This document shows, one piece after another, positions 1 to 58,317 of a DNA stretch of 58,317 nucleotides. The translations under genes were made by a program, and so were the position numbers. The notes beneath the pieces were generated by a model. The model had not been told where the DNA came from. It did not search any database and was given only the letters and a program-made list of their open reading frames with translations. Numbering within the stretch: position 1 is the first letter of the stretch; each line of letters begins with the position of its first letter. The DNA comes from a virus (Duplodnaviria; Caudoviricetes), in the IMG/VR virus record IMGVR_UViG_3300037323_000213, positions 1 through 58,317 of that record. One strand, 5' to 3'.

Positions 1-352
1 TGCCACCGCGTGGCTCGCGTACGTGTAGCGGTCGGTGACAGCGGTGTTAGCGCCAGCGTACCCACCCCCAAACAGCCCGAGTGTGCTGTTGCCGGTGGCC
101 GCCAAAGCGAACCGTGCTGTGCCCAGGACCGTACCCGCTGCCACCGCGTGGCTCGCGTACGTGTAGCGGTCGGTGACAGCGGTGAAAGCGCCAGCGTACC
201 CACCCCCAAACAGCCCGAGTGTGCTGTTGCCGGTGGCAGCCAAAGCGTACCGTGCTGTGCCCAGTGACGCCCCCGCTGCCACCGCGTTGCTCGCGTACGT
301 GTAGCGTTCTGTGGTAGCGGTGATAGCGCCAGCGTACCCACCACCAAACAGC
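1..352. repeat. 138-bp in-frame tandem repeat (about 2.5 copies)
   Basis: TGCCACCGCG recurs at 1, 139 and 277; the units are near-identical. Confidence 0.95.
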
Positions 353-414
353 GCAAATCCCGAGACATTACTCAGCGCCGCTGAGCGACCACTCATCAAC
401 AAAAATTCCAACAT
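1..414 (-). CDS. Kelch-like beta-propeller repeat protein (5' part; runs off the left edge); paralog of 57976..>58317
   Basis: Not in the ORF track because it is open-ended. Reverse complement from ATG 414 reads MLEFLLMSGRSAALSNVSGFALFGGGYAGAITATTERYTYASNAVAAGASLGTARYALAATGNSTLGLFGGGY..., preceded by a GGAG RBS. The 46-aa repeats contain Kelch-like FGG, RY and AR-x-x-LAA elements. Confidence 0.75.
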   Translation of the reverse strand, partial: MLEFLLMSGRSAALSNVSGFALFGGGYAGAITATTERYTYASNAVAAGASLGTARYALAATGNSTLGLFGGGYAGAFTAVTDRYTYASHAVAAGTVLGTARFALAATGNSTLGLFGGGYAGANTAVTDRYTYASHAVA

Positions 415-500
415 GGGTTTCTTCTCCAAAGTTTAAAATCAAACAAGTCCAATCACGCCTCGGTTCAATCGAACCAACGCTCAACCAGGCCTTCTTCTCC

Positions 501-1127
501 TCACAGGGTCGTTTTGATGTAACCCTCCAACACTGCCACCTTGGCCACCAAGGCGGTGTTTTGCATCCTCAGCTGGTCGATCTCGGTCAGTGGGGACAGG
601 TGAATGGACACGTTGGCCACGCGAGCCGCCTCAATGTCTCGGTGGCGCTCGTGGCTCACCACCGTGGGGCTTGACGTAATCGCCTCGTACACCGTGGAGC
701 GCACACCGAGTTGGTCAAAGACCACATCGGACAAGCGCTCTTTCAAAGCGCTCAGATCGAGCTCCACTGGAACGGCAGACAGCGAGATGCCCAGCATGAG
801 CCCGGTGTAGCGCACCCCATCGGCATCAGGCAAGCGAATGAGCGCGCTGTTGGGCACCGTCACCAGCTCGCCTGCGCCAGCTTGCAAGGTGATGATGCAG
901 TGGTCCAAAGCCTCATCGGCGGCGTACTCTTCTTCGCTCCCGCCTTGGGCCAAGTACACGTCTTCCAAGGGCTCTTGGCCCTGGGCCAGCGCCCCAGAGA
1001 TGCTCAGCACACCGGTGCACGTGTACTCAACGCTTGGGTTGCAAAGCGCCGTGTAGGGCGCTTTCAAACTGTACAGGCCTGACATCCCCACGGTGGGGAC
1101 GATTTCGGTTGGGTCTCGTTTAAGCAT
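501..1127 (-). CDS. Conserved jumbo-phage hypothetical / putative virion protein
   Basis: 208-aa ORF with an AAGGAG RBS, co-oriented with the upstream virion gene; C-terminal coiled coil. Confidence 0.6.
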   Translation of the reverse strand: MLKRDPTEIVPTVGMSGLYSLKAPYTALCNPSVEYTCTGVLSISGALAQGQEPLEDVYLAQGGSEEEYAADEALDHCIITLQAGAGELVTVPNSALIRLPDADGVRYTGLMLGISLSAVPVELDLSALKERLSDVVFDQLGVRSTVYEAITSSPTVVSHERHRDIEAARVANVSIHLSPLTEIDQLRMQNTALVAKVAVLEGYIKTTL

Positions 1128-1152: not shown

Positions 1153-2484
1153 TCAGTACACGGGCGTGCTGGCTTTGCTTGAGACCAAGTACGTGATGTT
1201 GCCCAGGCGAAAGCTCACGTACAAAATCCCACTGCGCGCCCCCTTCCTAAACCCTGGGGGGACGCTGGAGAAAGTGCTGGCCGACTCGGCCAGCAGCACC
1301 GCGCGCTCCAGCGTCAAGACCCATTCTTGAGTAGACTCTGCCATCATCTCAAACAGCGTGTCACTCGTGGGCACGTTGATAAAGTCAGGATAGATCAAGC
1401 CCACGTTAAAGAGCGCGTCTCGGTTGTCTGGTGTGCCCACCGCCAGCAGCGCAAGGGACTTGTAGTTGCACGGTATGACCGAGGCGTGCGCATCGATAAA
1501 GGACGGTGCAAACACAGGCAAGCGCGCTTTGAGGTATTTCAACTCTTGGCCCAGTTTGACAACCGGTGAGTGCACACCACTTTGCAGCGCCCGATCAGGA
1601 ATGGCGTAATTGTGCCAGCGCGGGTAGACCAAGACTTCGGTGAATTTGTAGATGTCTGGAAAAATCACGCGCCACTCAGCTTCTGAGCGCGTGCTGTATG
1701 CGGCAATGTGACTGCGCACCGCATCTCGAATGGCGTCCACATCCTCGCCGGCCTTGCCGTAGATCAGCAGCGTCCACGCCGTGGGCACGCGCACCGTGGG
1801 GCGCAAGGGGTCGATATAGTCGTAGCTCTCAGCGGCCACAATCGACTCGGGGTGGCCCTCCTTGGCCACTTGGACGTCCACCATGACTTGGGGCAGCGTG
1901 CGCGCTGCCAAAGCGGCGTTGACTTTGACTGAGCCCGTAAAGAAGACCTCCAAGCTCTGCAGCGGTGGGACCACCACAATGCTGTACTCATCGTACTGAT
2001 TGGCAAAACTGTTGTCGCTCAGCCAGACAAACACGCTGTTGTTTGCTGCGGGGTGATCGCTTGGCAGGCCCACGAACTTGCAGCTGATCCACTCTGGGAA
2101 CCACGCCCCATCAACGGCTTGCACCATCGCGCCGCAGTCGATCATGGTCGTGTTGCCCGAGATCTGGCCGAACTGGCTGATCACGTCTTGCAAGAACGGG
2201 CCTTGCAAGATCGAAGCTGCTGCGCTCGTTTGGCGCTCGTAGATCCACTGGGCCAGCGCGAAGAACCTAGTTGAGATCTCTGGGGGTACGAGCACAGGCA
2301 CGCCGTTGGCAAACCGGCTGGAGAACGCGTACAGCATCAGGTCTGGGTGAGCTGCTGAGGGGTACAGGCCGACGTTTTTGCTGTAGGTGAGTGACTGCGT
2401 GGAGATCTCACCAATGGTGGAGTTGGCGTTGAGCTCGTTTAAGACGAAGCTCTCAATGCCCAAGAAGCCTTTGAGTGTGTACAT
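1153..2484 (-). CDS. Putative virion structural protein (phiKZ gp157-like by synteny)
   Basis: Long ORF with likely start MYTLKGF at 2484; lies next to the RNase H/UvsX block as in phiKZ-like phages. Confidence 0.55.
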   Translation of the reverse strand: MYTLKGFLGIESFVLNELNANSTIGEISTQSLTYSKNVGLYPSAAHPDLMLYAFSSRFANGVPVLVPPEISTRFFALAQWIYERQTSAAASILQGPFLQDVISQFGQISGNTTMIDCGAMVQAVDGAWFPEWISCKFVGLPSDHPAANNSVFVWLSDNSFANQYDEYSIVVVPPLQSLEVFFTGSVKVNAALAARTLPQVMVDVQVAKEGHPESIVAAESYDYIDPLRPTVRVPTAWTLLIYGKAGEDVDAIRDAVRSHIAAYSTRSEAEWRVIFPDIYKFTEVLVYPRWHNYAIPDRALQSGVHSPVVKLGQELKYLKARLPVFAPSFIDAHASVIPCNYKSLALLAVGTPDNRDALFNVGLIYPDFINVPTSDTLFEMMAESTQEWVLTLERAVLLAESASTFSSVPPGFRKGARSGILYVSFRLGNITYLVSSKASTPVY

Positions 2485-2680
2485 AGATTGCCCTGGTGTG
2501 AGAAATAATCGAAAATGATATGAACTGCTCAAAGCACCCTTGCTTTGGGCGTCACCGTGAAACAGTCAACGCGCAAACCGCGCTGACGCTGTTTGGTAAA
2601 GCGCTTTTCCGATCTAACAAAAAGAAGAAGGTTTTTTAAAGCGACCTGTCATAAAATAAACTCCCGAAGGACTTAAAGCA

Positions 2681-5174: not shown

Positions 5175-5602
5175 CCACCACCTACGCTGTAACAAAGAAC
5201 TTCCTGGTGCGCGCGCTGATCACGATACTGCCCAGGCGCATGCGCCGAATCGTGTACTTAGCGTCTCTCACCGCCATTGCCGTTGACTCCAACGTGCCCG
5301 AGCGCGCGCTGATGCAAAAGCTCAACGTGCTGCTGGACCTCAGCAGCACGGGAGATGCAGCGCTGAAGTTGCCCATTCACGTAAGCAAGCTGATCTGGGC
5401 CAACAAGCAGGTGTTTGAAAAGGACATCGCCGTGTTAAGCTGCGCCCACGCCAACGACGATCACCACGCGCTGCAAAGCGCTGAGCGCATCGTGGCGGCC
5501 ACGCCGGCTTGGTTTGAGTACGGGCACCCCGGGGACTCGATCAAGGACTTGATGACTTTGTTCAGCACCGACAACCACGTTTTCACACCCGTTGAGGTGT
5601 GA
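5171..5602 (+). CDS. Hypothetical protein
   Basis: ATGA overlap with the RNase H stop; 143 aa. Confidence 0.65.
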   Translation: MTTTYAVTKNFLVRALITILPRRMRRIVYLASLTAIAVDSNVPERALMQKLNVLLDLSSTGDAALKLPIHVSKLIWANKQVFEKDIAVLSCAHANDDHHALQSAERIVAATPAWFEYGHPGDSIKDLMTLFSTDNHVFTPVEV

Positions 5603-5642
5603 AGTATCTCCCAAAAACCCCGCACTCCTATTTGTTGCACCC

Positions 5643-6476
5643 ATGGCCATCCAACTCCAAACAGACCCCCTGCAGGGCTTGAAACTTGCCTGCGACAGCT
5701 TGGCTCTAGAGGGCTTTAGCTTATCGGGCACCCTGTCCTCGCTGGCGGGCTTCATGCCCAACATCATCGCGGGGTTTGCCTCGAGCAAAGTGGCACTCGA
5801 GCTGCCAGAGACCCCGCTGAAGAAGGACCAGAGCAAGTTCCTAAAGCTGCTCGATCAGTTCTCCTACGCCGAGCTGATGGGCCTCAGAGCCTTTCGCCCC
5901 GAGGGCGTCAGAGTCACGTACTTGCAGTACCTCGCGGTGCTGATCCCCGTTGCCACTTACCTCCAAGAAATTCAAAAAAATGTTACGAGTCCTTATCTTC
6001 TCTTTTTGGCTCAGGTGGTGTCCGATAAAAAAGCAGCCCTGTCCACCCGAAGCCAAGACGCCGAGTACCGACAGCTAGATGCCAACCGCGCGCGCATGCT
6101 CTCTCAGCTAAGCGCCCTGTACGCGAGTGACTCCTACGAGGCCAAAACCACGGTTGGCAAGGTGGTGGACCGAAACGCCGACTGGAAGCCGGTGTTTGCG
6201 CAGTGCAACCAGGCAATGGACTGCCTAAAGACCATTGGCCTGGCCTCTCTCAAAGACCAGATGAACCAGTGCACCGACTACTTGGAGACGATCCACGGGC
6301 TGCTCAAGAGCGGGGCCCTGGAGGGCACGACGCCTGAGGTGGTCAAGCACCTAGCCAGTGGGGCGTATTGCATTGCCCAGGAGTTTGAGTTTTTTGCTAC
6401 AACGTACTACCGCGCGCTGGCTTTGAGGGGCAGCATCGACAACACCACCCAGCACGTGCTGGAGACAATGGGCTAA
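5643..6476 (+). CDS. Putative virion (head) protein, phiKZ gp153-like
   Basis: Has ALE motifs (SLALE, KVALE) resembling phiKZ head-protease cleavage sites; lies upstream of UvsX. Confidence 0.5.
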   Translation: MAIQLQTDPLQGLKLACDSLALEGFSLSGTLSSLAGFMPNIIAGFASSKVALELPETPLKKDQSKFLKLLDQFSYAELMGLRAFRPEGVRVTYLQYLAVLIPVATYLQEIQKNVTSPYLLFLAQVVSDKKAALSTRSQDAEYRQLDANRARMLSQLSALYASDSYEAKTTVGKVVDRNADWKPVFAQCNQAMDCLKTIGLASLKDQMNQCTDYLETIHGLLKSGALEGTTPEVVKHLASGAYCIAQEFEFFATTYYRALALRGSIDNTTQHVLETMG

Positions 6477-6493
6477 GACCGATTTGCAGCCAC

Positions 6494-6535
6494 ATGCCCA
6501 AAGCACTGAACCCACCCGTTCAGTGCTTTGGGCAT
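6494..6535. terminator. Long intergenic stem-loop
   Basis: ATGCCCAAAGCACTGAAC / GTTCAGTGCTTTGGGCAT is a perfect inverted repeat. Confidence 0.6.
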
Positions 6536-6644
6536 TATGCCCCTTAAGTGCAAAAATTACCCTCATTACTGATCTTTTGACGCCATGCTGATCTCAATCG
6601 GTGTGGACCTAACAGCACCATTACACCGAACGACCCACCCCCTT

Positions 6645-8099
6645 ATGACCTTTGATCTGCGCCCCGCGTTCACCCAAATCCCCAACGTGAAAGTCAGCTA
6701 CAACCTGGGGTGCTTGCTCGATGTCCCCACGGGCGAGTACCAAATCGGCCAACACGGGGAATCCATCCTAAACGGCGGGCTGGGCCCCGTCACAGGTGTG
6801 GTTGGCATTGGCAACAATTTTAAGTCCACGTTCATGCACTTCATGATGAACACCGCCATGGCGCGCTTTCCTGATAGCACCGCAGACTCCTACGACACCG
6901 AGATGAACATGAACGAGAAGCGACTGGCCAGCTTGGCGCGTGGCGTGCTCGACTTCAACGGAGAGGACGTGATTGACAACGGGCGCTGGCGCATCACCGA
7001 CAAATCGCACCACATGGGCAACGAGTGGTTTGAGATCTTTAAGAAGTACATCAAAAGCAAAATCGAAGCAGCTCCCAAGCTGATGCGCACCACGCCGTTT
7101 CTAAGCCGGGACAAAACGACGCTGCTCACGCAGATGTACCCGACCTTCGGCCAAATTGACAGCTTCAGTGAGTTTGAGACTCAAGACGTGGCTGACATGG
7201 GGGAGAAGAACGAACTCGGTGAATCCGGGGGCAACACCATTCACATGCGCCAAGGCCTGGCCAAGGTGCGTTTCTTGTCCGCTGCCCCCTCGCTGGTGGC
7301 AAGCGGCAACAACCCACTGCTCCTAAGCGCGCACATCGGCAAAGACATCCCAATGGATGCGCGCGCACCTCCGATCAAAAAGCTGCAGTTCCTAAAGAAC
7401 GGCGACAAGATGAAGGGCGTGACAGACAAGTTCTTCTTTCTCACCACCAACTGCTGGCAGTGCCAAAACGCGATGCCCTTGTTCAACGATTCGACCAAGT
7501 CGGTGGAGTACCCGCGCCACAAGGACGACACGATGGTGGGTGACACCGACCTGAACGTCTTGACCCTGGTGATGCTGCGCAGCAAGACCGGGCGCTCTGG
7601 GCTGATCATGCAAATCTTGGTGTCCCAGCAAGACGGTGTGCTCCCCGCGCTCTCCGAGTTTCACTACATCAAGACCAACGACCGCTACGGGCTGGGTGGC
7701 AACATGCAAAACTACTATTTGGAGCTCTTGCCCGAGGTGAAGCTGTCTAGGACGGCTGTGCGCAGCAAGATCGACAACAACCCCCACCTAAGGCGCGCGC
7801 TGAACATCACCGCTGAGATGAGCCAGATGACCATGCTCTGGCACGACTTGCCCGAAGGCCTCATGTGCACCCCCAAAGAGCTGTATGACGATTTGAAGGC
7901 CATGGGCTACGACTGGTCGGTGCTCCTGAACACGCGCGGCTGGTGGACCTACAACAACGATGTGCACCCCCTGCCGTTTTTGTCAACAATGGATCTGCTG
8001 CGCCTGCGCAAAGGCCTGTACCAAGTGTACTGGCTGGAAGATGACAAGAAGACCATCAAAAAACAATTCGTACCCAAAACAAAATCCACTCCCCTTTAA
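6645..8099 (+). CDS. uvsX: UvsX/RecA-like recombinase (phiKZ gp152-like)
   Basis: Walker A-like GIGNNFKST, YDTE, Walker B-like QIDSFSE; synteny with RNase H. Confidence 0.8.
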   Translation: MTFDLRPAFTQIPNVKVSYNLGCLLDVPTGEYQIGQHGESILNGGLGPVTGVVGIGNNFKSTFMHFMMNTAMARFPDSTADSYDTEMNMNEKRLASLARGVLDFNGEDVIDNGRWRITDKSHHMGNEWFEIFKKYIKSKIEAAPKLMRTTPFLSRDKTTLLTQMYPTFGQIDSFSEFETQDVADMGEKNELGESGGNTIHMRQGLAKVRFLSAAPSLVASGNNPLLLSAHIGKDIPMDARAPPIKKLQFLKNGDKMKGVTDKFFFLTTNCWQCQNAMPLFNDSTKSVEYPRHKDDTMVGDTDLNVLTLVMLRSKTGRSGLIMQILVSQQDGVLPALSEFHYIKTNDRYGLGGNMQNYYLELLPEVKLSRTAVRSKIDNNPHLRRALNITAEMSQMTMLWHDLPEGLMCTPKELYDDLKAMGYDWSVLLNTRGWWTYNNDVHPLPFLSTMDLLRLRKGLYQVYWLEDDKKTIKKQFVPKTKSTPL

Positions 8100-8450: not shown

Positions 8451-8506
8451 GGCAACGGACATAAACCGCCATCACCGTCAACGCGGTGGTGGGGTATATG
8501 CTGCAC

Positions 8507-8560
8507 TGCAGAATCTTTCAGTCACATATGCTTGTATTGTGTTAGTCTAGGAATTTCTCT
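8507..8560 (+). promoter_or_regulatory. Copy of a repeated intergenic motif, putative early promoter
   Basis: TGCAGAATCTTTCAGTCACATATG...TGTTAGTCTAGGAATT is nearly identical to 38887-38946 and 46177-46225. Confidence 0.6.
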
Positions 8561-21800: not shown

Positions 21801-24800
21801 CGGTGGCATAGCCCAGTGCTGCGCCCACCGCACCGCCCACGGCCACCGTGGCCGCCAGCTTGGCTGCAGCGACGGCCTTGAGCGCCAGCACACCAGCCGC
21901 GCCGCCTGCAACGGCACCGGGCAAGAAGCGCTCCATCAGCCCAGTGCCCAGGGCGCCTAAGACACCACTGCCTGCACCGCCCGCTGCTCCTGCTGCGCCA
22001 GCAGCACCTGCGCCAGCCGCACCGCCTGCACCGCGGGCTGCTGCAGCGGCTGCAGCAGCCCGCTTTTTGTTTTGCTTGTCTTGCAAGGAGTTCTCGCGCA
22101 CGCCGTCGCCGTCGATGTCGCCCGCAACTTTCTTGGGACTGAACTTGTCTTTGAAAATGGCCTTGATGTCTTCCAAGAGCACGACGGTGCGCTCGCTGGC
22201 CACGGCTTGTGCGGTTTGCCTGCGCTCGCTCATGTTTTGGCGCAGGTCGTCTTGGCGGGCTTCTCGGTCCTGGGCCAAGGTCCTGCCCCGGCGCGTGGGC
22301 TGTTTGACCCGCATGCTAAACAACTTGCCAATCGCCCCAAGGGTTTTGCCAACCAGCGAGCCAAGGGTGGTTTTGATCGGCTGGCCCCGCGCGTCGAGCA
22401 AACCCTTCTCAACGTCCTCAAAGCTCAGCACGACTTGGCCGTCCTCGTCCTTGATCTCCCCGTCAATGTCGCTTGGGGTGGCAATGGGTCTTTGCGTGGC
22501 CGAGGAGAAGTAGCCCCCGTTTTTCATCACCGAGCCGTAGAGGGAGACTTGGTTGCTCCCACTCACGTACACATCGCTTGGCTTGGCTGACAAGCCCACC
22601 AAGCGCTTGAACACCGAGCCCACCGCTTTGCCCGCCAGTCGCCCAATGCCAAGCACGAGCCCAAGCGTCTTTTTCTGCACAAACATCGCTGAGCGAAACA
22701 AGGCCTTGCCCACGATGGCGACCAGCTTGAAGGGGTTGAATATTTTGAGCAGCGAGTCGTACACCTGCAAGTTGTCCAAGTCCTCCTCGTTTAGCACGAC
22801 TTGGCCCTCGGTGTCTTCGAGCTCACCACTGATGTCGTCTTGGTGGTAGATTGTCATGCCGCTTTTCCTCAAGCGGTAGTGGCCCTCTTTCAGTTTGCTG
22901 GCGTACAAGCGCGGCTCGCTCTCACCGCGCACGTACACGTCTTTCACTTTGCTGCGCCCAAAGCCCAGCACGCTTTTGATGGCGCGCGCGCTCAGCTTGA
23001 GCGCTTTGCCAATCAGGCGAAAGTTGTAGGCAACCATCTTGGGGGCCACACGGGTTTGGAAGTACCAAAGCGCCCCCACCAGTTTGCCCAGACCGCGCCC
23101 AACCGAGCGGATCACGGAGAACTCGCGCGTCTTGGGGTCGTACACGCGCAGCTGATCAATCTCCTCGGCTTGCACGACGGTGGAGCCCGACTCGTCTCGC
23201 ACCTCACCCGTGATCTCGCTGTGGTGAAAGATCTTCTCTCCCGTCTCAGCCAAGTAGTAGTGACCCTCTTTCAGTTTGGCTGCGTACAGGCGCGGTGTTT
23301 CTTGGCCCTGCAAGTAGACGTCTTTGGGCTCGCCTTGGTTGTCCTCAAAGGCGTCTCGGGTGCTGCTCAGGCCCCGAGCGATGGCGTTTTGCAAGCCCTG
23401 GCGAGACAGGTCAATCTGACCCAACCTCATCTGGCCCAAAGCACCAGTGGCCTTGTTCTTGGCGCCCTCTAAGGCGCTTAGGCTTTGGGTCCTCAGATCA
23501 AAGAACGCCGCGCGCGCCAGCTCAGTGGCGCTTAAGACCACCGTGGGTCCCTCCATCACGTCTCCCGTGATCTCGCTTTGATGCTCAATCACTTTGCCAC
23601 TCAACTTGTCTCGGTACTTGCCCAAGCTCAGTTTGAGCTCGAGCAGGCGAGGAGAGGACTCCCCCTTCACGTACACGTCTTGCACAGCGGTTTTGAATTT
23701 GCCAACACCCTTTAGAACGCCCGCTTTCAACGAGTTGCCCGCACTCAGAATTGCTTTACCAAGGATGCCCGGCTCGCTGTCTTCGTCCGATGAAATCAGC
23801 AAGCGCCCGCTCTGGGACGACCTTCTGGAGCGCTGGCGGCGCGTGCGCTGGGTGGCGTTTGCTGCTGAGGCAACTGCGCCAGTCTCGCCCTCGACGGCCT
23901 CGCTGGCATCGATGCTGCCAGGTGCGCTCAGTCCCTGCGCGCTGGTTGCAGCTGAGGCGCCCAGGAGACTCTCGATTTTGCTCAGCGCCTTGCCAATGCT
24001 CTCGTTGCCCCGGATGGCTGAGCCAAGCGTGGGCGAGGGCTTTCGAAAGCCCTCGGGCGCATTGGGCCCGTTAGGGTCGAACGTGGGCACGCCCTCATTG
24101 CTCAGCTCGTCTCTGCGTCCCCGCTCGCCCCCTCCAAGCCCGCTGTCGCCCGCGCCACTTGGCCCGTTTGGTCCATCCAGGCCAATGATGCCGCTTGCAC
24201 CACCCAAGCCGCCCAGGCCAGCGGGCCCAGCCGCGCCCGCGCCGCTTGCGCCGCCTGTGCCTCTTGTGCCTCTTGTGCCACCACCACCACTGGGTCCACT
24301 TGGTCCCGCTGGTCCACCGATGCCAGACGAGCCACCCAGACCACCTGGGCCCACCCCATCACCAGGGCCAATTGCGCCACCCGGGCCTCCCGCAGGAGGC
24401 AGTCCGTTACTCGTCTTTAGGTAGTGCTCTAAAAGAGCATCGACATCAATGGTTTGTCCGTTTTTGCCCAACACCCGCATGCGCTTTAGCGCTTGACTTC
24501 CCCCCAGATCCATGCGCTGCTGCATGGCGCCTCGCGCGTCCATCACCCCGTCAGCAGCGCTGTTGTGCAGCCTGGAGAAATCCAGTTGCTTTTGGGGAGA
24601 TAAGCTCTCCAAGTAGCTTTTCACCAGTGGGACCAACTCGTCTTGCACCGCTTCGCTCTCGTCTCGGTAAGCACGAAATTTGGCCAAGTTCTCAACGTTG
24701 GCGCTCTTGCCAGCAGCAGCGTTTTTCAGCAGCTTGCGCTTGAGCGCGTCGCGTGCAGCCGGGCTCAGCGTGCTGTTGGCGTCGATGTTGTCTGCCAGCG

Positions 24801-26526: not shown

Positions 26527-27975
26527 ATGGCCGTCAATGACATCCCCTTTAACATCGATTTGCTGCAAATCAACGACGAGGACATCAAGCGCATTCGAGC
26601 TGTAACCTCCCTTGATACCTTTGAGGGCGTCACAAAGAACTTTCACCCCGATGGGCTTTTCTCCACGACCACGTTTGGCGTGGCCGGCTCAGATGCGCGC
26701 TATTTGCGCTACGGCTACATTGACTTGAAGTTGCCGGTGATCCATCCCACCATCTACAAGTCCCTGATGGGCTTGCGCAGCTTGTACAGCGACATCTTGG
26801 CGAGCCGAGAGTTTGTGCGCTGGGATGCCAACTTGGCTGACTTCGTCAAGTCCGACGTGGTCGATGGCTACACGGGGTACGCGTACTTCATTGAGCACTG
26901 GCACAAAATCGAGTTCGAGCAGCGCCCAAGCGTCAAGCGCGAGCAAGCAGTCGCGTTCATCGACAAGTACCGAGACAAATCGATGGTTCAGCGCGTGCTC
27001 GTGATCCCCGCGTCCTTAAGAGACCTGGAGATCGATGACAACGGGCGCGAGAGCTCAGACGAGATCAACGCGCTTTACTACAAGCTGATTGCCATCTCCA
27101 ACACCATCAACTTGGCCACCATCAAGGTGAGCCCAGAGGCGTACAACAGCCAGCGCGTGTCCCTGCAAAATACCTTCAACGAGGTCTACGAGTACTTGGC
27201 CGCCATCGTAGAAGGTAAGAAAAACCTGATGATGGGCAAGTGGGCGTCTCGCAAAATCTTCAACGGCACGCGAAACGTGATCACCGCCATGGGCACGGTC
27301 ACGCCCCACCTAGACGCCCCAGGCCACTTGGGCTTTAACGACACCGCAGTAGGTTTGTACCAAACGCTCAAAGCCATCTTGCCCGTGTCTCAGTACCAGC
27401 TGCGCTCTGGGTTCTTAAGCGAGGTGTTCACCTCACCCGGTGCCCCAGCGCTCTTGGTCAACAAGAAGACGCTGCAGTCCGAGCGCGTGCAGCTCAGAGC
27501 CGATGAGTACGACGCGTGGATGACCAACGAGGGGTTGGAAAAATTCATCACCTACTTCCAAGAAGACACGATACGCCACTCCTTTGTGAGCGTGGCAGAT
27601 CACTACGTGGGCTTGCTGTACCGAGGGCCAGACGCCACGTTCAAGTTGTTGCACGGCATCGATGAGCTCCCACCGGGGAGGAACAAGGAGGACTGCAGAC
27701 CCCTTACAAGGGCGGAGCTGCTCTACACGGCCATCTACAAAGTGGCCAACAAGTACCCGTGCTTCTTGACCCGCTACCCCGTTGGGGGCATAGGCAGCAT
27801 CTACCCGAGCAACACGTTTCTAAAGACGACGGTCAAAACCGTCGTCTTGCAAGAACTCGGAGAGGACTGGAAGCCGCTTGGGGAGGGACACATCGCCTAC
27901 GAGTTCCCCACGGACACCAACTTCTTTAACTCCATCTCACCCCACTCGTCTCGACTGGCCATGCTCGGAGCGGAT
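26527..27975 (+). CDS. Virion RNAP beta'-like subunit (phiKZ gp180-like), exon 1
   Basis: HPDGLFS...FG, GYIDL, GKWASRK.FNGTRNVIT and LTRYP motifs; the ORF ends at LAMLGAD, the start of the catalytic ADFDGD motif. Confidence 0.9.
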
Positions 27976-28610: not shown

Positions 28611-28622
28611 TTCGACGGAGAT
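28611..28622 (+). CDS. 12-nt micro-exon 2 of the beta'-like subunit encoding F-D-G-D
   Basis: TTCGACGGAGAT lies between the terminal G of intron 1 and the start of intron 2 and completes GAD|FDGD|TAS. Confidence 0.85.
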
Positions 28623-28982
28623 GGACTGCCGCGTCTCCCTAGCCCGAAATGGTTAGTAAAATAATTTCTCTAATTGTCTGGAACCTCTCGCCAAACCACT
28701 GAACCCAAGCGGAGCATGAAAATGCACACGTGCTGCAAAGCAGGTTTGAAAATACAGTGGGTAGAGACAATCAGCAGCCAAGCCCCTGCCTATCGTCGGG
28801 AGACGAGAGATGGGGAAGGTTCAACGACTACTCGAAAGAGGTACACTCAAGTGAGTGGAAATGGGAAACACCCCACCCGCCCACAGGCGCGGGGTGAAGA
28901 TATAGTCTGGTCTGCGCGCAGACGCGCAGCAGCCTTCTTTGCAAGGCGAGACGGGTCTAACGAGCCTGTCTGAACACCAACG
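28623..28982 (+). mobile_element. Group I intron 2 (beta' gene)
   Basis: IGS GTCTCC pairs with micro-exon GGAGAU (U.G at the splice site); P AATTGTCTGGAA, Q AATCAGCAG, R GTTCAACGACTA, S GAAGATATAGTC; terminal G at 28982. Confidence 0.9.
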
Positions 28983-29147: not shown

Positions 29148-30929
29148 ATGGCCCTCCTCACCTACCCCGCCTTTTACCGCCGCTTTGGGGTACGCACCAT
29201 CGCTCAGGTCGCAGCACCTCCCACGACCGACCTGAGCTTGCTGAACCTGCCTATGAGTGCGGTGTACCACTACGTCACCTACGACGGCGTAGAACTCGGG
29301 CCACCCTCGGATGACTACTTGTTTCGCCACATCACCAAGCCCATCTTGGTGGGGCATGTCTTGGAGCTCGCCGAGGACAAGGGCAACCCCCGCAAGCTCG
29401 GTGTGAACGTGCAAGCCTTGGTGCGCGACTATCACGCGCGCCACCGCAGGACCCGCCCACTGCGCAGCTTAGAAGTCGCTGACCGAGATAAGACCACCCT
29501 GCTCGTGTACAACTACTGCTTGCTGGCCAAGAACCAGCGCTACGTGCGCAGCTTCTTCACCGAGTACTACAAGTGGTACAACCAGTTCTCCACCGTCATG
29601 CAAACGCTGGCCAGCGTGGCAGCACTCTCTGAGCGCCAGCAGTTCTTGATGCTAAGAGTTCCCGCTGTCATCCCAAGCATGCAGCAGCTGGGCATGGCAA
29701 GCGGCACGATCAACCAAGCCACTTTGAAGACACTGAGGGGCGAGGACGCCTACGTGTTCTTGGAGCTGTGGAAGTGGCTAAGCGCAGAGCGCGCCAGCAG
29801 CTTGTTCTCCAAGATCCCGGCGAACAAACTGCAGCAAATCAACTTGGTCTACCAAGAGAGCGCAAAGTGGTGCACGATCAACCTGGGCGTGCTCAACAGC
29901 TTTCGAGACAACAAGGACGACCCGCTCCTGGCTGAGTACCTAACGCCCGCCAAGCAAGTGATCGATGCCACGCAGCTGCAAAAGCGCGTGGTGCGCATGC
30001 TGATGACGCTGATGGAGGTAAGGACACTGACTGCCAACGCGGGCGAGGACGCTGAGCTGGGTGTGGGTGCACCCACACCATCCAAGCTGGCCCAAAAGCT
30101 AAGCACTGACACGGATGAGGACGAGCTCGGTGAGCGCGCCAGTGAGTTCACCGACGTGCCAGGTCAAAACACGGGCTTTGAGGACGAGGAGGACCAAGCG
30201 CTTAACCTGCCCCAGGAGCAAGCAGCGCTGGCCACCGTGGACGCAGACATCCAACTCGATGAGGACGATGAGGGCGCACAGGCGCGCATCTTGGCTGAGG
30301 ACGCCCAGCTCGATGAGGACTTGGCTCAGTTAAACGAGATCGCGCGGCGCCAAGAGAGTCAGACCAGTGAGGACGAGGCACCCTTGGCCGAGGTGATTTT
30401 GGAGGCCAAAGACACCAGCTTGGAAGACGGCATCCTCTTTGTGTGCGACCGCTTGGCCGATGACGGCTTGCTCTCAGCAGCGGAGTACCGCCGGTTCACA
30501 AAACTGGCCAATGCCTACAAGAGCCTAAGCGCCCCAGACGGCAAAAGCACGCTGGAGGAATTCATCAAGATCCCCCCAGAGGTGCTGAAGATCACCGGCT
30601 CATCCAGCGTGCCTGACTCCACGAGCGTCTTGGACAAAACCATGCTCAAGAGCAGTTTGCTCGACTTTGATCAGCGCTACATCGAGCAGGTGATGGCCAA
30701 GGACACCGCTGCCTTTGTGCTCAACGTGCAAAAGGCAGGCGTTGCTGTTACGGGCTACAAAGTCGAGCGGGTCGATGATGTCTTGGGTGGCTACGAGATG
30801 CACAGCCTGCGCCTAGCACCCGTGGTCGGTGTGCCCTCCACGCTGCGCTTTAAGTTACCAATCGTGCAGGCCGATGGCACTTACTCGTCTAATGGGGTTC
30901 GCTACCGCCTCAGGAAACAACGCGGCGAT
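29148..30929 (+). CDS. Virion RNAP beta-like subunit (phiKZ gp178-like), exon 1
   Basis: 594 codons ending NGVRYRLRKQRGD, followed immediately by a TAA inside the intron. Confidence 0.85.
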
Positions 30930-31411
30930 TAAAACCCCCCTGTGATGTGCTAAAAGGCATGCCTCAGGAAACAGGTCGCCGTACCGCAGAAATGCGGTAC
31001 TAGAAAACCTACCTAACTGCGGGAAAACGTCTACAATCTTGCTGGCTACCACTTGCGCGCAGAAACGCAGCGCAACACCTGTGGAGATAACGCTCCTCAT
31101 CAGGCACGGTGAAAACGCCAGTCCAAGAGACATGATCCGCAACGAAGGCGCTAAGGACCCATAGGTCTAAGCGCTGTGTTCAGAGGCCATCGAAAGCTAA
31201 TTGCGCAGAAACTGCGCATAATCACACCGGTCTAAAATCTGGTGGTGGCTTGGCAACAAGCCATTAAAGCGAGTAGAGTAGGGCGCGCTCTTATCCAGCG
31301 CGTGATCGAGAGATCGCAAGGCTTTTATTGGCCTTGAGCCGAAACGGTAGGCACCCTACCTCCCCCTTTGCGGGGGAGCGGGTGGTGATATGGTCCACTT
31401 TGGATGGGGTG
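30930..31411 (+). mobile_element. Group I intron 3 (beta gene), no ORF
   Basis: IGS GTCGCCG (30975-81) pairs with exon CGGCGAU; P AACTGCGGGAA, Q GATCCGCAAC, R GTTCAGAGGCCA and S GATATGGTCC (compensated P7); terminal G at 31411; the junction restores KQRGD|LPIRK. Confidence 0.9.
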
Positions 31412-53504: not shown

Positions 53505-53555
53505 GTTGACTTGACTCTCGCCCCCTATTCATATCAAAAACAGAAAGCGTCTGCC

Positions 53556-56117
53556 ATGGAAGACTACCTGGTTCACCACGCACGCACCCACGTTTGGTGC
53601 ACCCCCGATCAAGACAACCAAGTGATCATCAAGCCCGCTCGCATCACCCCCGTAAACGGGGTGTGGGGCCAACTCACGGTGTTGTGGACCACCGTGCCCC
53701 TACCGGAGCCGCTCACGCGCTTTCACGTGTTCCAAGTGGGCCAGCTAAACCCGGTGCTGCTCAACTTGTTTGACCAAGAGGGCCAATGGGTCACGTTTGC
53801 CGATGCCATGGTTCGGGGCAAGAACATCTGCGACATCTACACGACCCTGGGCGTGCAGATCCCGCGCACGCAGACGTGGTACATGCTGACTGCGGGCATG
53901 AACGTGCTGATTGCGGTGAAGAAGAACACCCGGCTGCCCTACGATTTCAACGACCTCGATTTGTACCTGCGCACCTACAGCAACGAGTACTTTGCCTCCG
54001 AGCGCGCGCAGCTGCTCACCGACTACGTGGACGTGCAAGGCGGCTTGATGCGAAGCGCCTTGGACATCTCGACCCTGCAAAACAAGTACACCCAAGCAAC
54101 TAGGCTGCCTGGGGGCGTGTACGCGTTTGTGAACGGCTACAAGGTGCCTGCCATCAGCATCATCACGGTGAAGGTGGGCGATGTGGCGGAGTACGTCTAC
54201 GACAGCGCCATTGACAAGGTGGTGGATTTCAAGCTCGATCAACTCGACACGTTTGACTCCAGCCTAGACGCCAAGGGCAAGTACTTGCTGCACTACGCGG
54301 GCAGCCAAGACACGGGCATTGACTTCATGGACGACATTGACCTGTTCTTGGTCAACGCGCTGAGTGGGCGCGGCGTGTACGTGCACAAAAACGCCGCCGA
54401 TGCGCTTCGCATGCTAAGCCACCGGGACTACTCGGTCCCGGTGGCTTATTTGGCCGCTTATTTGGTGCATTTTAAAAACAAGGCAGGCGCGGTGGATTTC
54501 TCCAACCTGTACTTGCGCCTGCACGTTCGCAAATCGGGCTACCGGCGCTTGTTGGTGCCAGAGGCCAACCGCATCAACGAGCTGTACAAGCTCTCAGACG
54601 TGGCGCTCACCCAAGCGATGCTGGGCATTGAGTCCAACGTGCCCGTGTGGCGGGCAAACGCGCTGGAGAGCTCGGGCTACGCCCAGCTGATGAACAGCGC
54701 GTTTTTGCAAGTGACCCCAGCGCTGGTCAAGCGCACCTATGGCTACTCAGCCGTGGCCAAGCTCGTGGCAGACACCCCCAGCTCGGGCCAGGTGCTGGGG
54801 GGCAAGCGCGTTGTGAGCGTGCCGTACTTGCTCAGCAGCAACGCCACGGCCTTTGAGTACGACGCCCAAGGCGTGCTGCTGCAGTGGCACCGCCACACGA
54901 GCGGCTTGACCTACGTGTGCAAAAACACGCTTACCGCCTGCGTTGAGATGATTGCAGGCGAGGGCACGCGCGCCCCAGACGCCCAACGCACCCAAGTGGT
55001 GACCCTGGACAGTCAAGCGGACTACAGGTTTTACTCGGCCAACATCCGCTCGGGCTTAGACGCCCCTGTGTGGCAAGACGTGACTGGGAGTGGCGCGTAC
55101 ACAACCACGCCCACGGGGGCGCGCTGGCTGCTCGCAGACGACGCGGAGCACCACTTGGTGCTCTCTGACAAGCGCTTCTTGCTCTACGAGGAGAGCGTGC
55201 CCACCACCGATGGCCTGATGGTGATCAGCCTGACTGCGCTTAGAAGCGTGAACGGCGCGGGTGTGCTGCGCGCGCTTGATGTGCCCTTGGGCGAGCTCGA
55301 TGTGTTCCTAAACGGGCGCAGCTTGATTGAGGGCTTGGACTACACGGTAAAGTTCCCCCACCTGAGCATCGTTAACAAGAAGTACCTGCTCGAGCCCCAA
55401 AGCACGCCCCAAACAGTGGTGATTCGGTTCACGGGGTTTTGCAACGCGCAGCTGATGAGCACCCAGGCCAATGAGTTTGGCTTCATCCAAAACGGCAAAG
55501 CCTCGGTGAACCAGCGCTTTGATGTGCGAGATGCCAAGGTGCTTCGCATCGTGTGCGGTGGGCGCCTAAAGCTGCGCGAGCAGATGGTGTTCTCCGAGGA
55601 CACGCAGGCGTACGACTTCTTAGATGCCAAGAACGGCCAGCCGTATTTGGTGCGAGACATCGTGGTCCCCATGTGGGGGCTCGCTGACACGGACACCTAC
55701 GCCTACCGCGCGCAGTCCTTGCTGGTTGACCAAAGCATCTCAGACTACATGAGCTTGAAGGTACCCGAGCCTGCGGTGGCAACGGTCAACCCAGCGCTGG
55801 AGCGCCACACGCTGTACAGCCCCTTTGTGTGCAAGATACTGCACGACTTGGTCTCTGGGGCGTTGTCGACTGCGCTGGTGCAAGACCACTACAACGACGA
55901 CCTCGTGCGCGCCTTGTGCGCGCCCTACCTGTACTTGCTTGACTACGACCCGATACACGCCGAGCGGGTTCATGATGCAGACCACGTGGAGATCCACCCC
56001 CACCAAAGGCCTGCGGTGATGACGCTCACCCTGCCCGGTTACCGGTTTCTTGGCAAAGTGGTGCGCCTGTACGCCAACGGGCGCCTCGCGCTGTCGCCGT
56101 TTGTCAAACTGGTGTAA
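53556..56117 (+). CDS. Virion structural protein (phiKZ gp27-like, putative baseplate)
   Basis: About 853 aa; VWCTPDQD.Q N-terminus and LNGRSLIEGLDY motif; synteny. Confidence 0.65.
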   Translation: MEDYLVHHARTHVWCTPDQDNQVIIKPARITPVNGVWGQLTVLWTTVPLPEPLTRFHVFQVGQLNPVLLNLFDQEGQWVTFADAMVRGKNICDIYTTLGVQIPRTQTWYMLTAGMNVLIAVKKNTRLPYDFNDLDLYLRTYSNEYFASERAQLLTDYVDVQGGLMRSALDISTLQNKYTQATRLPGGVYAFVNGYKVPAISIITVKVGDVAEYVYDSAIDKVVDFKLDQLDTFDSSLDAKGKYLLHYAGSQDTGIDFMDDIDLFLVNALSGRGVYVHKNAADALRMLSHRDYSVPVAYLAAYLVHFKNKAGAVDFSNLYLRLHVRKSGYRRLLVPEANRINELYKLSDVALTQAMLGIESNVPVWRANALESSGYAQLMNSAFLQVTPALVKRTYGYSAVAKLVADTPSSGQVLGGKRVVSVPYLLSSNATAFEYDAQGVLLQWHRHTSGLTYVCKNTLTACVEMIAGEGTRAPDAQRTQVVTLDSQADYRFYSANIRSGLDAPVWQDVTGSGAYTTTPTGARWLLADDAEHHLVLSDKRFLLYEESVPTTDGLMVISLTALRSVNGAGVLRALDVPLGELDVFLNGRSLIEGLDYTVKFPHLSIVNKKYLLEPQSTPQTVVIRFTGFCNAQLMSTQANEFGFIQNGKASVNQRFDVRDAKVLRIVCGGRLKLREQMVFSEDTQAYDFLDAKNGQPYLVRDIVVPMWGLADTDTYAYRAQSLLVDQSISDYMSLKVPEPAVATVNPALERHTLYSPFVCKILHDLVSGALSTALVQDHYNDDLVRALCAPYLYLLDYDPIHAERVHDADHVEIHPHQRPAVMTLTLPGYRFLGKVVRLYANGRLALSPFVKLV

Positions 56118-56154
56118 CTTTCATCTTTCCCATCTCCAAGGACTTTGTTTTTAT

Positions 56155-57885
56155 ATGCTCAACTCCAACCCCCTCATTGCCTACGTAGTGGGCGTGGACA
56201 ACGTCTCACCCGTCTACAACCCCAGCAGCCGCTGGCAGGTGTGGAACATGAACGAGCTGTACCTGGGCCAAACCGGTGAGGGCAAGTACGTGCCCAAGGT
56301 GGGCGATGAGGTGCACGAGCTCACCGGCTCGACCATCACGCGCTTCATCGTGATGGACATTCACCCCGAGACCCTGATACCGCGCTTTCACCAAGAAAAA
56401 GCCAACCTCGTCACCTCCTCCTTTACTGAGGACGATATTTTGTTCGGTGTGGGCCCAGGCACGCAAAGCGACACGTACCGCGTGTACCTGGACCGCTCTG
56501 TTGCCCCTTACCGCTTGGCCGTGGACGCGCGGCTGAAAGTGGGGGGCTCCATGGTGAGCACCTGCAAGCTGTTCAAGGGCGCTAACGTCTCCGATGACGG
56601 CGTGGTCGTCTCAGGCGTGTACAACCCCAACGGCCAGTTGGTGAGTGAGAACGTGCCACTGGAGCTGGTGGCGTTTGAGACGCTCACCAACCACGCCATC
56701 AAGGTCGTGATGCCGTGCCACACAACAGCAGACCTCTTGAACGGGGAACTCGTCACTGCCGTGTTCTACGACAGCTTGGGCTTCGTCGTGTCCAAGCGCC
56801 AACTCCTCTTGGAGAACACCGCGTTCATCCGCTCAACCGATGCGAGCCGGCGCTACGTCGTGGGCATCACGCTGGAGACACCGTTTTTGAGTGCGGTGGG
56901 TTCGCGCTCTATCCAGTACCCGCTGAACATTCCGCTGAACGCGCTCAACTTGATCGGGGTGGTGAACTACAACGACGGCTCCTCAAACCGCTTGGCAGTG
57001 GATGGGACTCGCTTTTCTGTGGCGGGGCTGGATGCGTACGCCGCCACCATCATTGGGCAAAAGAGCAAACTGGTGCTGAAGTACTCGCTCGGGGTAAATG
57101 AGGTGGCCTACGGCGCTTACGTGGGCTCAGACAAACACATCAGTGAGGTCTATGACATCACAACCACCAACATGAACGGCTCCTACGCCGTGCAGCTCTA
57201 CGGCTACCCGGTGTGGGTGGACATGGTCAGTGGCTACAGGCTGGAGTGGTTCTTGTACAGCTTGGACCGCAACATCGCGTTTAACGTCACCCCGCACGTG
57301 CGCATCAACGCGGCGCGCGGCGTGTACGATGCGAAGGCCTATGGGGTCAAGCAGACCTTGTCGGTCTCGGTGAACTTGAAGGACGTGAACGGCACGTACA
57401 AAAGCTTCATCCACGTGCAGTACGTCGACGTGCTGCTGAACAAGCCCGGCTTGGAGCGCCCTGACTTGGACGGTATCCCCAACTGGAACATGTCGGTGGT
57501 CTCTGGGCAAAGCGTGCCGTACGGCCAAGGGGTCTACGCCACGTACCACCGGCAAACGGCCAACCTGTTTCATGTGAAGCTGGATGCCAACACGAGCGAC
57601 CGGGCCATGTGGCTGGAGAAGGTGTACCTGCCCACAGCGCCTTTGTTTGACAGCTACCGAGAGACCCGGGCTCCCATGCCCACGCACTTCACCTTGGTTG
57701 CAGGTGGGGTGAGCACGACCTACTCGATCAACGACTGGAACGTTGAGCTCACCTTGAACCAGTCGCTGGCCAACAACAGCTCGGTGTACCTGAAGTTCTT
57801 CCAAAGGACGAGTGACACCGACTTGCACTTGAGCATTGCGGGCATGCAGATCTTCCAGATCGATGTGAACGGCAACTTTGTTTGA
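56155..57885 (+). CDS. Virion structural protein (phiKZ gp26-like)
   Basis: About 576 aa; W...E.Y.G..G.GKYVPKVGD motif; synteny. Confidence 0.65.
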   Translation: MLNSNPLIAYVVGVDNVSPVYNPSSRWQVWNMNELYLGQTGEGKYVPKVGDEVHELTGSTITRFIVMDIHPETLIPRFHQEKANLVTSSFTEDDILFGVGPGTQSDTYRVYLDRSVAPYRLAVDARLKVGGSMVSTCKLFKGANVSDDGVVVSGVYNPNGQLVSENVPLELVAFETLTNHAIKVVMPCHTTADLLNGELVTAVFYDSLGFVVSKRQLLLENTAFIRSTDASRRYVVGITLETPFLSAVGSRSIQYPLNIPLNALNLIGVVNYNDGSSNRLAVDGTRFSVAGLDAYAATIIGQKSKLVLKYSLGVNEVAYGAYVGSDKHISEVYDITTTNMNGSYAVQLYGYPVWVDMVSGYRLEWFLYSLDRNIAFNVTPHVRINAARGVYDAKAYGVKQTLSVSVNLKDVNGTYKSFIHVQYVDVLLNKPGLERPDLDGIPNWNMSVVSGQSVPYGQGVYATYHRQTANLFHVKLDANTSDRAMWLEKVYLPTAPLFDSYRETRAPMPTHFTLVAGGVSTTYSINDWNVELTLNQSLANNSSVYLKFFQRTSDTDLHLSIAGMQIFQIDVNGNFV

Positions 57886-57975
57886 GGTGGGGTAGTCCTG
57901 TGCAGTCAGGCGTGGGTTTGAACCCACGCCTGGTGGTGTGGACTTGTTTGATCTTAAACTTTGGAGAAGAAACGT

Positions 57976-58317
57976 ATGTTGGAATTTTTGTTGATGAAAG
58001 GTCGCTCAGCGGCGCTGAGTAATGTCTCGGGATTTGCGCTGTTTGGTGGTGGGCTCACTGGCAGCGCTAACACCGCTGTCACCGACCGCTACACGTACGC
58101 GAGCAACGCGGTGGCAGCGGGCACGGCACTGGGCACGGGACGGTACTATTTGGCTGCCACGGGCAACAGCACGCTCGGGCTGTTTGGTGGCGGGCACACG
58201 GGCAGCGCTAACACCGCTGTCACCGACCGCTACACGTACGCGAGCAACGCGAGAGCAGCGGGCACAGCACTGGGCACGGCACGGAACGCTTTGGCTGCTG
58301 CGGGCAACAGCACACTC
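57976..58317 (+). CDS. Kelch-like beta-propeller repeat protein (5' part; runs off the right edge); paralog of <1..414
   Basis: MLEFLLMKGRSAALSNVSGFALFGGGLTGSANTAVTDRYTYASNAVAAGTALGTGRYYLAATGNSTL...; 141-bp (47-aa) repeats; GGAG RBS. Confidence 0.75.
   Translation, partial: MLEFLLMKGRSAALSNVSGFALFGGGLTGSANTAVTDRYTYASNAVAAGTALGTGRYYLAATGNSTLGLFGGGHTGSANTAVTDRYTYASNARAAGTALGTARNALAAAGNSTL

Follow-up and report, generated by a model that had tools for sequence, protein, structure and literature searches.

Outward-facing copies of a Kelch-like propeller gene at the two ends of a chimallivirus contig

The two ends of a viral contig of 58,317 nt, which was analysed over its whole length and is called the window below, begin the same gene twice, in inverted orientation and with both copies running outward. 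What does such an arrangement stand for: the termini of a genome, a segment that inverts and thereby varies a binding protein, or the places at which an assembly gave out? The original prediction, made from the letters of the window, had proposed a shufflon-like inversion between members of a dispersed gene family and had also allowed that the repeats simply broke the assembly. Here we describe the two ends and the gene family to which they belong, weigh the readings of the inverted arrangement against each other, and consider what the encoded proteins may do.

A jumbo-phage fragment with homologous ends

The window is one entire IMG/VR record, classed as linear and with a CheckV completeness of 22%. 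Profile searches identified the phiKZ markers gp28 (vertex protein family), gp29 (sheath), DUF7193 and DUF7194, and the window also encodes several RNA polymerase beta-type (split) subunits, a UvsX-like recombinase, RNase H and a tail protein of 2,543 aa with lytic domains. No tRNA genes were found in the window. The nearest cultured phages are Burkholderia phage FLC9, Ralstonia phages RP12/RP31 and Xanthomonas phage RTH11, with an amino-acid identity of ~40%. Given the completeness, the phiKZ-type genes and these closest relatives, the window is a fragment, roughly a fifth, of the genome of an uncultured phiKZ-like (chimallivirus) jumbo phage. It is present in two salt-lake metagenome runs, which contain 0.98 and 0.28 of its sampled words. 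The features on which the following sections draw are these:

1..414, minus strand: left Kelch-like gene, 5' part, 138 codons (translation; phrog_19111, E 2.7e-15; tandem period 138)
417..451, minus strand: leader of the left copy, 35 nt, with GGAG 9 nt before the ATG
462..475, minus strand: short hairpin GGTTCGATTGAACC between the DUF7194 gene and the left leader, read from the sequence
501..1127, minus strand: DUF7194 gene, homologue of phiKZ gp161 (PHIKZ161), directly upstream of the left Kelch copy (PF23824, E 8.4e-40)
1153..2532, minus strand: gp157-like virion protein (phrog_3293, E 1e-108; tblastn to phiKZ gp157, E 2e-55)
6585-8099: UvsX-like gene (phrog_97, E 8e-40)
49189-50085: homologue of phiKZ gp30 (tblastn)
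50199-52379: homologue of phiKZ gp29 (tblastn)
52515-53504: homologue of phiKZ gp28 (tblastn)
53511..56117, plus strand: gp27-like baseplate scaffold protein, DUF7193 (PF23823, E 2e-250; tblastn to phiKZ gp27, E 6e-125)
56050..57885, plus strand: gp26-like baseplate cross-linker, immediately preceding the right Kelch copy (phrog_3430, E 1e-167; tblastn to phiKZ gp26, E 1.5e-83)
57909..57930, plus strand: hairpin GGCGTGGGTT-TG-AACCCACGCC between the gp26-like gene and the right leader, read from the sequence
57939..57973, plus strand: leader of the right copy, 35 nt (alignment with the left leader)
57976..58317, plus strand: right Kelch-like gene, 5' part, 114 codons (translation; phrog_19111, E 2.3e-10)

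The inverted match between the ends that had been read from the letters held up on alignment. The reverse complement of 1-451 corresponds to 57939-58317, and over a slightly wider stretch, the reverse complement of 1-470 against 57920-58317, the mean column identity is 85%. The best ungapped inverted block pairs 328-451 with 57939-58062 (124 nt, 94% complementary) and has 57,487 nt between its arms, while additional inverted arms between the ends are 85-98% complementary. Equally sound was the claim of a leader of about 35 nt followed by a common N-terminus. The leader TGGACTTGTTTGATYTTAAACTTTGGAGAAGAAAC is found at 417-451 on the minus strand and at 57939-57973 on the plus strand (34 of 35 bases the same), and a 23-nt stretch taken from it, searched with up to 3 mismatches, occurs at 2 places in the window, which are the two leaders themselves (0.00 expected from 100 shuffles). 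The left translation starts MLEFLLMSGRSAALSNVSGFALFGGG and the right one MLEFLLMKGRSAALSNVSGFALFGGG, giving MLEFLLM(S/K)GRSAALSNVSGFALFGGG as the start common to both frames.

Behind this start both copies run into tandem arrays, on the left at 1-352 with a period of 138 (2.6 copies, 93% matches) and on the right at 58038-58317 with a period of 141 (2.0 copies, 89% matches). The left fragment is made up of a 22-aa N-terminus and 2.5 units of 46 aa, and its 3' part lies beyond the end of the record. The genes upstream of the two copies differ, with the DUF7194 gene on the left, whose match covers positions 3-199 of the 204 in the PF23824 profile, and the gp26-like gene on the right. A terminator scan made no call at the left hairpin (462..475) and called a terminator-like site at 57924-57941, which overlaps the right hairpin. 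No sigma-70-like promoter was detected at the copies in a scan whose models do not extend to phiKZ-type promoters.

A dispersed family of Kelch-type propellers

A pattern search of viral contigs yielded 30 loci that encode relatives of the left fragment. Two of these stand out with 77-80% identity, followed by the next best at 64%, and both are located in one record, G001 (70,226 nt, 26% complete). They are complete copies at 21837-22739 on the minus strand and 26539-27444 on the plus strand, facing away from each other at a distance of 3.8 kb; a third Kelch copy in G001 is cut by the end of the record. In this phage genome the Kelch-like family thus occupies at least four loci, counted as distinct sites over the window and its neighbour G001, and the dispersed multicopy family of the original prediction is real. 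The leader is common to the four loci, its 3' half (from TTTAAAC to the ATG) being common to all four copies, and the upstream flanks are different at each. A scan of viral contigs with 20 nt of the leader gave 4 stretches, two of them in G001; the other two (L042 and L043) were dismissed as chance matches in the AT-rich coding DNA of one unrelated phage. The leader together with the start was found in none of the metagenome contigs (0 stretches).

After a 22-aa N-terminus the complete proteins, 301-302 aa long, have six units of 46-47 aa, and they finish with SSSPGGF. The two incomplete window copies are 80-84% identical to the full-length G001 paralogue P0003, with 80% for the left fragment. 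As a Kelch-type beta-propeller we regarded a fold with five to seven blades in which a repeat of 44-56 aa forms one antiparallel sheet of four strands per blade. The AlphaFold2 model of P0003, calculated from an alignment of 40 sequences (pLDDT 95.3, pTM 0.91), has 24 strands arranged as six blades of four. Foldseek comparison of this model with the PDB placed the Kelch domains of KLHL17, Keap1 and KLHL2 at the top (TM 0.86-0.92, rmsd ~2 A), and every one of the best PDB matches is either a Kelch domain or a Kelch-like propeller made by design (TM 0.84-0.94). At the level of the fold, the full-length family protein is therefore predicted to be a six-bladed Kelch-type propeller.

The Kelch repeat motif consists of a glycine doublet after the second strand and conserved aromatic and arginine positions in each unit. 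F(G/R)GG is present in 19/19 units listed, and the complete units also carry YTY and (A/G)R. At the curated cut-off the two window fragments (P0001 and P0002) and P0003 had no match to the Pfam Kelch models (Kelch_1-6, PF24681); P0004 came close on Kelch_3 (21.2 bits, the cut-off being 22), and the more distant homologues P0090 and P0032 pass. The earlier designation "Kelch-like" is therefore right as far as fold (by the model) and motif are concerned and fails at the Pfam threshold, which the window fragments do not reach. Both fragments belong to phrog_19111, with the E-values given above.

In a large protein collection 8,000 candidates were scored, of which 233 match the family at E <= 0.001. 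Among the 120 homologues listed, three carry DUF7194, three Kelch families, eight PF14886, two a LamG-type domain and one fn3. Searching GenBank phages by tblastn returned no matches for the 138-aa left fragment and 6 records, representing 3 phages, for the full-length paralogue. The family profile matched none of the four cultured genomes phiKZ, FLC9, RP12 and Noxifer (0/4), and hhalign detected no similarity between this profile and the C-terminal half of FLC9 gp64. In jumbo-size records of other phages all family matches lie on one strand (10/10 records examined), arranged either as adjacent genes of ~300 aa (G006) or as frames of 620-1,555 aa that hold several propellers.

Across genes the units group mainly by position, unit 2 with 2, 3 with 3 and 6 with 6, and whole-gene duplication is therefore favoured. 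Local similarity is seen among the units of the left copy (90-93% alike) and, in one G001 copy, between unit 1 and unit 4 (93%). Over the initial 66 coding nt the identity is 94-97% in 6/6 pairs, and in the same six pairs the synonymous divergence is 0-0.067 in the first 22 codons versus 0.15-0.28 in the scaffold; to judge from these comparisons, either gene conversion homogenises the 5' end together with the leader, or selection acts on their nucleotide sequence as such. The differences between copies concentrate in five or six residues after FGGG, four after YTYAS and two after AR. Read against the model, the residues after FGGG and after AR appear to lie in two long loops on one face of the propeller. 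At the variable positions dN/dS is 1.06-3.3 in 6/6 pairs, compared with 0.14-0.29 in the scaffold, the dN of the loop class being inflated because this class was defined from the observed variation. We infer that the family members serve as binding modules and that the copies diverge in the long loops of a single propeller face.

Gene order across the copies and the cause of the contig ends

The last 208 nt of the window correspond to the terminal 208 nt of G001 on its reverse strand, with 98.6% identity and three clustered mismatches. Beyond this join G001 carries the rest of the Kelch gene and then, on the same strand, a 705-aa homologue of the phiKZ gp25 large terminase, which is followed on the other strand by homologues of FLC9 gp24, gp23 and gp22. 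The same order and strands across the join are found in RP12 (ORF025, ORF024 terminase, ORF023), RTH11 and phiKZ (gp26, gp25); FLC9 alone has a reversed terminase gene. Since RP12, RTH11 and phiKZ share this order, the right end of the window appears to continue in the ancestral order, with a Kelch gene inserted where RP12 and phiKZ have the gp26-like gene and the terminase gene side by side. With 3 mismatches in the overlap, G001 may come from a related strain rather than from the same genome. When the two records are joined, the right Kelch gene has only four units, at positions 1, 2, 3 and 6; the copy may truly be short, the assembly of G001 may have collapsed here, or the two records may represent related strains rather than one molecule. 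A propeller of four units is odd for Kelch, and it is also possible that the join skips units, that the copy is aberrant or that the records are not truly adjacent.

Over the stretch of G001 that takes in both complete copies and the intervening 3.8 kb, 8/8 matched genes are collinear with FLC9 and match it in relative strand, and RP12 and phiKZ agree in the relative order of the 3.8-kb segment. One of the two copies is located between homologues of the adjacent FLC9 genes gp357 and gp358, the other after a homologue of gp361. Beyond the left end, RP12 and FLC9 would lead one to expect a small gene on the reverse strand and then a gene for an SbcC-like ATPase. On this side of the window a neighbouring contig was sought through the SbcC-like proteins of FLC9 and RP12, which led to 16 loci, none of them from the window's lineage; in these relatives' loci, obtained with an alignment of the two proteins, a Kelch gene near DUF7194 was found in 0/16. 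Like morons, the family copies are inserted between genes that are neighbours in relatives. As regards the promoter and terminator of a moron, the conserved leader is present and the window copies cover 5' parts only.

We consider it very probable that paralogues broke the assembly and that no switch is involved. On this reading, the window ends are the 5' parts of two different paralogues of a six-bladed Kelch-type propeller gene. The family is scattered as separate inserts, each between genes adjacent or nearly so in cultured relatives and each equipped with its own conserved leader, ribosome-binding site and start codon, and the assembler would have stopped inside the near-identical 138/141-nt units shared within and between copies. 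The outcome looks like inverted terminal repeats because the left and right copies point outward. Genuine inverted terminal repeats they are not, since the record is 22% complete and its right end continues into G001.

Independent data came from Logan contigs of two runs, X1 and X2, with which one end of the window was compared. In X1 the unique left-flank contig (5,582 nt, depth 13) stops at window position 409, and for positions 1-450 the only cover comes from pieces of 54-69 nt and from the tips of two longer contigs that belong to other copies. Of the latter, one (1,029 nt, depth 10.4) extends into the right flank of the window, and the second (3,856 nt, depth 14.2) shows the extra base typical of the G001 plus-strand copy. 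In X2 loose ends match the flank of the G001 minus-strand copy and the right flank of the window. One further loose-end flank in X2 matches none of the four known loci. The summed word depth is 268 over positions 101-200 versus 13 on the unique flank, a figure that is no measure of copy number. Exact strings of 33-66 nt are shared between loci and of 34-57 nt within arrays. The contigs list one joint, from 53 to 337 (side 26, 10 letters between), which looks like a piece of another copy; they list no strand-changing joint, the partner arm lies outside the compared stretch, and this is no test of orientation. The low completeness, the position of both ends in tandem units, the overlap with G001 and the X1 contigs that break at the leader all bear out the simpler option of the original prediction, that the repeats broke the assembly.

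It is improbable that the copies mark the borders of flip-flop isomers, in which a UvsX-type recombinase would cross over between the inverted copies, so that both orientations of the 57.5-kb segment exist with swapped C-terminal blades. The inverted homology is real, with the 124-nt block at 94% and an exact run of 54 nt between the two window copies, the window encodes the UvsX-like gene listed above, and a mixture of isomers would likewise end contigs at the repeats. The overall identity of the copies is only ~85%, however, and their exact runs are short. The low synonymous divergence at the 5' end and the shared leader fit gene conversion between dispersed copies, including inverted ones, but the low divergence could equally stem from selection on a promoter or on the translation start. 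Moreover, wherever a junction can be set against cultured relatives, which is the case for the right junction of the window and for either side of the G001 pair, its orientation is ancestral.

We find it hardly credible that the segment inverts by programme, like a shufflon or a Gin/Cin system, so as to switch receptor-binding specificity. What speaks for it are inverted copies of a putative binding protein beside baseplate genes, and nothing else. The window resembles Mu G/Gin, P1 C/Cin and the R64 shufflon (Rci) in having inverted repeats within putative host-binding genes, and in those systems inversion recombines C-terminal parts. Each of those systems has a site-specific recombinase of its own and short crossover sites, and in each a single constant 5' part is expressed while the alternative 3' parts are silent. 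In contrast, serine (PF00239) and tyrosine (PF00589) recombinases were found in neither of the two records (0/2; window plus G001, 128 kb, about half of the genome), in searches that were positive in 12/14 and 14/14 control genomes. In each window copy the leader, GGAG and ATG lie within the segment, on the repeat's inner side, and the two copies do not share one constant 5' part with silent 3' parts. Expression of both would thus be expected in either orientation and inversion would switch nothing on or off; a crossover would produce two genes that are chimeric yet expressed. The segment itself comprises 57.5 kb of core genes and is no small cassette, and the relatives carry same-strand arrays in all ten records. 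With no recombinase in 128 kb, separate starts and ancestral junctions, the shufflon-like system originally proposed finds no confirmation, and the window ends are most likely neither a genome terminus nor a programmed invertible segment.

That the ends derive from a single mis-assembled locus, the circumstance named at the outset as one that would refute the prediction, or from a circle or concatemer closed through one gene, is suggested by the same gene start at both ends and is very hard to believe, as the copies differ at 6-15% of positions and follow different upstream genes, X1 holds separate contigs for the left flank, the right flank and a third copy, and copies that are inverted rather than direct are unable to close a circle.

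Possible function and known systems

In a 2026 atlas of phiKZ structures (PMC13250141), gp161 is described as the "horn" protein, six dimers of which make up the baseplate ring HR2, gp157 as a brace ring of 18 dimers at the baseplate periphery, gp27 as the scaffold and gp26 as the cross-linker of the fibre-attachment platform, and the fibre protein gp131 as bearing a propeller of seven blades that presumably binds the host. Of the two window copies, the left one follows the gp157-like and horn genes, and the right one follows the gp27-like and gp26-like genes. DUF7194 stands N-terminal to the propeller in 3 of the 120 listed homologues; in these three metagenomic proteins the DUF7194 part stops short of the profile's end. 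Elsewhere among viral contigs, horn homologues are extended at the C-terminus by a SPRY domain (653 aa, L057) or by an unnamed 220 aa (425 aa, FLC9-like phages).

As two of the four copies follow baseplate genes and fusions of propeller and horn protein occur elsewhere, we tentatively propose a role at the baseplate periphery, that of a virion-associated binding module; we hold this to be possible and short of an even chance. The designation as receptor-binding protein in the original prediction is likewise conjecture. Four copies in G006 follow a tail-fibre-like gene, an array in G003 follows a collagen-like tail fibre gene, and the Kelch protein CBB_552 of phage CBB is reported from virions (PMC5259590). 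Against a virion role, both complete copies in G001 have genes for RNA polymerase and helicase around them. A search of viral contigs with P0013 for a fusion context returned Kelch-only relatives, and no fusion proteins were found with P0013 in genome contigs or with P0018 in metagenome contigs. Complex prediction for two copies of the window DUF7194 protein together with P0003 gave a score of 0.00 and a mark of 0.32, which speaks neither for nor against binding. The genes downstream of DUF7194 in Noxifer were considered as propellers and rejected; in Noxifer and phiKZ these genes encode internal head proteins.

The propellers could instead be non-virion, moron-type proteins that act early or inside the cell as binders of host or phage proteins, which we regard as rather unlikely. 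Kelch domains are typically protein-protein binding modules, and the top fold matches here are the Keap1 and KLHL adaptors. Each of the four loci is an insert between genes that in relatives are neighbours or close to one another, two of these loci being among the RNA polymerase and helicase genes just mentioned, and the homologue in BcepSaruman is the only plus-strand gene in a metabolic gene block. On the other side stand the fusions to the baseplate horn protein, LamG and fn3, the arrays beside tail-fibre genes in other phages and the presence of CBB_552 in virions.

A bolder version of the baseplate role appears doubtful to us. According to it, the C-terminus of the horn protein (gp161/DUF7194) would serve chimalliviruses generally as a plug-in point for host-binding Kelch, SPRY or unnamed modules, supplied as a fusion or by the next gene. 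The Kelch paralogues of this phage would then be interchangeable, with 5' ends kept identical by recombination, including recombination between inverted copies, which would shuffle blades and at times flip the 57.5-kb segment.

Kelch proteins in giant phages are already known. The BcepSaruman gene is annotated as such, paralogous propeller fibres have been described for phiKZ, and the CBB paper (PMC5259590) mentions Kelch-type proteins reported for Pseudomonas and Yersinia giant phages. In a paper on the phiKZ capsid, "Kelch" turned out to be no more than the name of an author. The closest counterpart to the window family among viral models is BcepSaruman_110 (BcepSaruman/BcepSauron, Kelch-motif containing, phrog_19111), which is likewise a stand-alone propeller of ~300 aa and an isolated insert on the strand opposite to its neighbours. 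It is 33-34% identical in sequence, and the predicted structures overlay with a TM of 0.89 and an rmsd of 1.7 A. Unlike the window family, it is present as a single copy (1 place per record) and is located in a nucleotide-metabolism block, not by baseplate genes. The cyanophage Synechococcus phage S-SKS1, which by its taxonomy line is not phiKZ-like, was the only other cultured phage with many copies that we found (15 places in a 208-kb genome, ~35% identity).

A paralogous set of propeller-bearing proteins in a chimallivirus is also known from phiKZ, where gp131 and gp133-135 are thought to bind the host and are docked on the gp26/gp27/gp157 platform, as described in PMC13250141. Homologues of these platform genes flank the Kelch copies of the window. 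The phiKZ gp131 propeller has seven blades on a long N-terminal fibre part, whereas the window family has six blades and an N-terminus of 22 aa, and phiKZ, as noted, has no sequence match to the family profile. The genes for gp131 and gp133-135 are, we take it, clustered and not dispersed. Several Kelch propeller genes per large viral genome likewise occur in vB_PcaM_CBB (CBB_550, 552 and 554) and in the Kelch-like families of poxviruses. Proteins of both are among the fold matches, with a sequence identity of only 10-16%, and the poxvirus proteins carry a BTB domain that is absent in the window family.

For the reading of viral contigs, our analysis means that inverted "terminal repeats" may mark outward-facing paralogues at which the assembler gave up, and that such ends should not be taken for genome termini or switches without evidence at the level of reads. 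For the biology of these phages it provides three leads. In an uncultured chimallivirus a gene for a stand-alone Kelch propeller is present at no fewer than four dispersed places, and in the encoded proteins the long loops on one face appear to diverge fast on a conserved scaffold. The fusion of the horn protein to a Kelch propeller or to SPRY elsewhere suggests, finally, that this protein may be a docking place for accessory host-binding modules.

An interrupted RNA polymerase gene and a nearby group I intron

According to a profile search, a single RNA polymerase beta-type gene (phrog_3148) spans window positions 29148-35384 and is broken into three reading frames, with an HNH endonuclease gene lying inside the second gap.

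29148-30932, RNA polymerase beta-type frame 1, matching phrog_3148 profile positions 2-574
31328-32845, frame 2, matching profile positions 575-1050
32899-33900, HNH endonuclease gene
34173-35384, frame 3, matching profile positions 1048-1421

The interruptions are probably intron or endonuclease insertions. In the repeat search, a 65-nt repeat connects positions 28766-28830 with 34053-34117. A comparison with Rfam gave one intron:

28613-28929, plus strand, group I intron (RF00028, 79.3 bits, exceeding the Rfam gathering score)

The repeat search also gave two pairs of direct repeats in the window, 28286-28361/28678-28753 (88% identical) and 28518-28571/28889-28942 (78% identical). Their first arms sit 392 and 371 nt upstream of the second, and these repeats suggest a diverged second intron copy immediately upstream of the first. 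Both the group I intron and the putative second copy are flanked by two RNA polymerase subunit genes.

A 48-nt repeat family and terminase orientation

A family of 48-nt direct repeats around CAGTCACATATG is represented four times in the window, two of the copies being 94% identical in the repeat search.

8499-8546, 38886-38933, 46177-46224 and 48042-48089, copies of the 48-nt repeat

As read from the ORF list, all four directly precede the start of a plus-strand ORF, and the repeat may be a phage promoter or leader motif.

Regarding gene order, the cultured Burkholderia phage FLC9 differs from RP12, RTH11, phiKZ and the window phage in that its large terminase gene (gp25, L045 13340-15610) is inverted, while the neighboring genes retain their order.

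Propeller genes within and beyond the window

Joining the stretch at the end of the neighbor record G001 (L004 2-493) to window positions 57976-58317 would produce a gene with no more than four propeller units, equivalent to units 1, 2, 3 and 6 in the paralogues that have six. In salt-lake metagenome run X2, a contig carrying the family leader has a loose end at window position 447 and continues into a flank unlike all four known loci; it may represent a fifth propeller locus or a strain variant.

The baseplate horn protein (DUF7194) has homologues that differ in their C-terminal addition, which is either a Kelch propeller, a SPRY domain or an unnamed stretch of 220 aa.

L057 4901-6862; L052, L053 and L054 around 5540-6838 (viral contigs); metagenomic proteins P0013, P0018 and P0066: DUF7194 homologues with C-terminal additions

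In the cultured 208-kb cyanophage Synechococcus phage S-SKS1 (HQ633071.1), 15 places match the propeller at about 35% identity (for example L090 1663-3060). The propeller is a multicopy family in S-SKS1 too, where it has gone unremarked.
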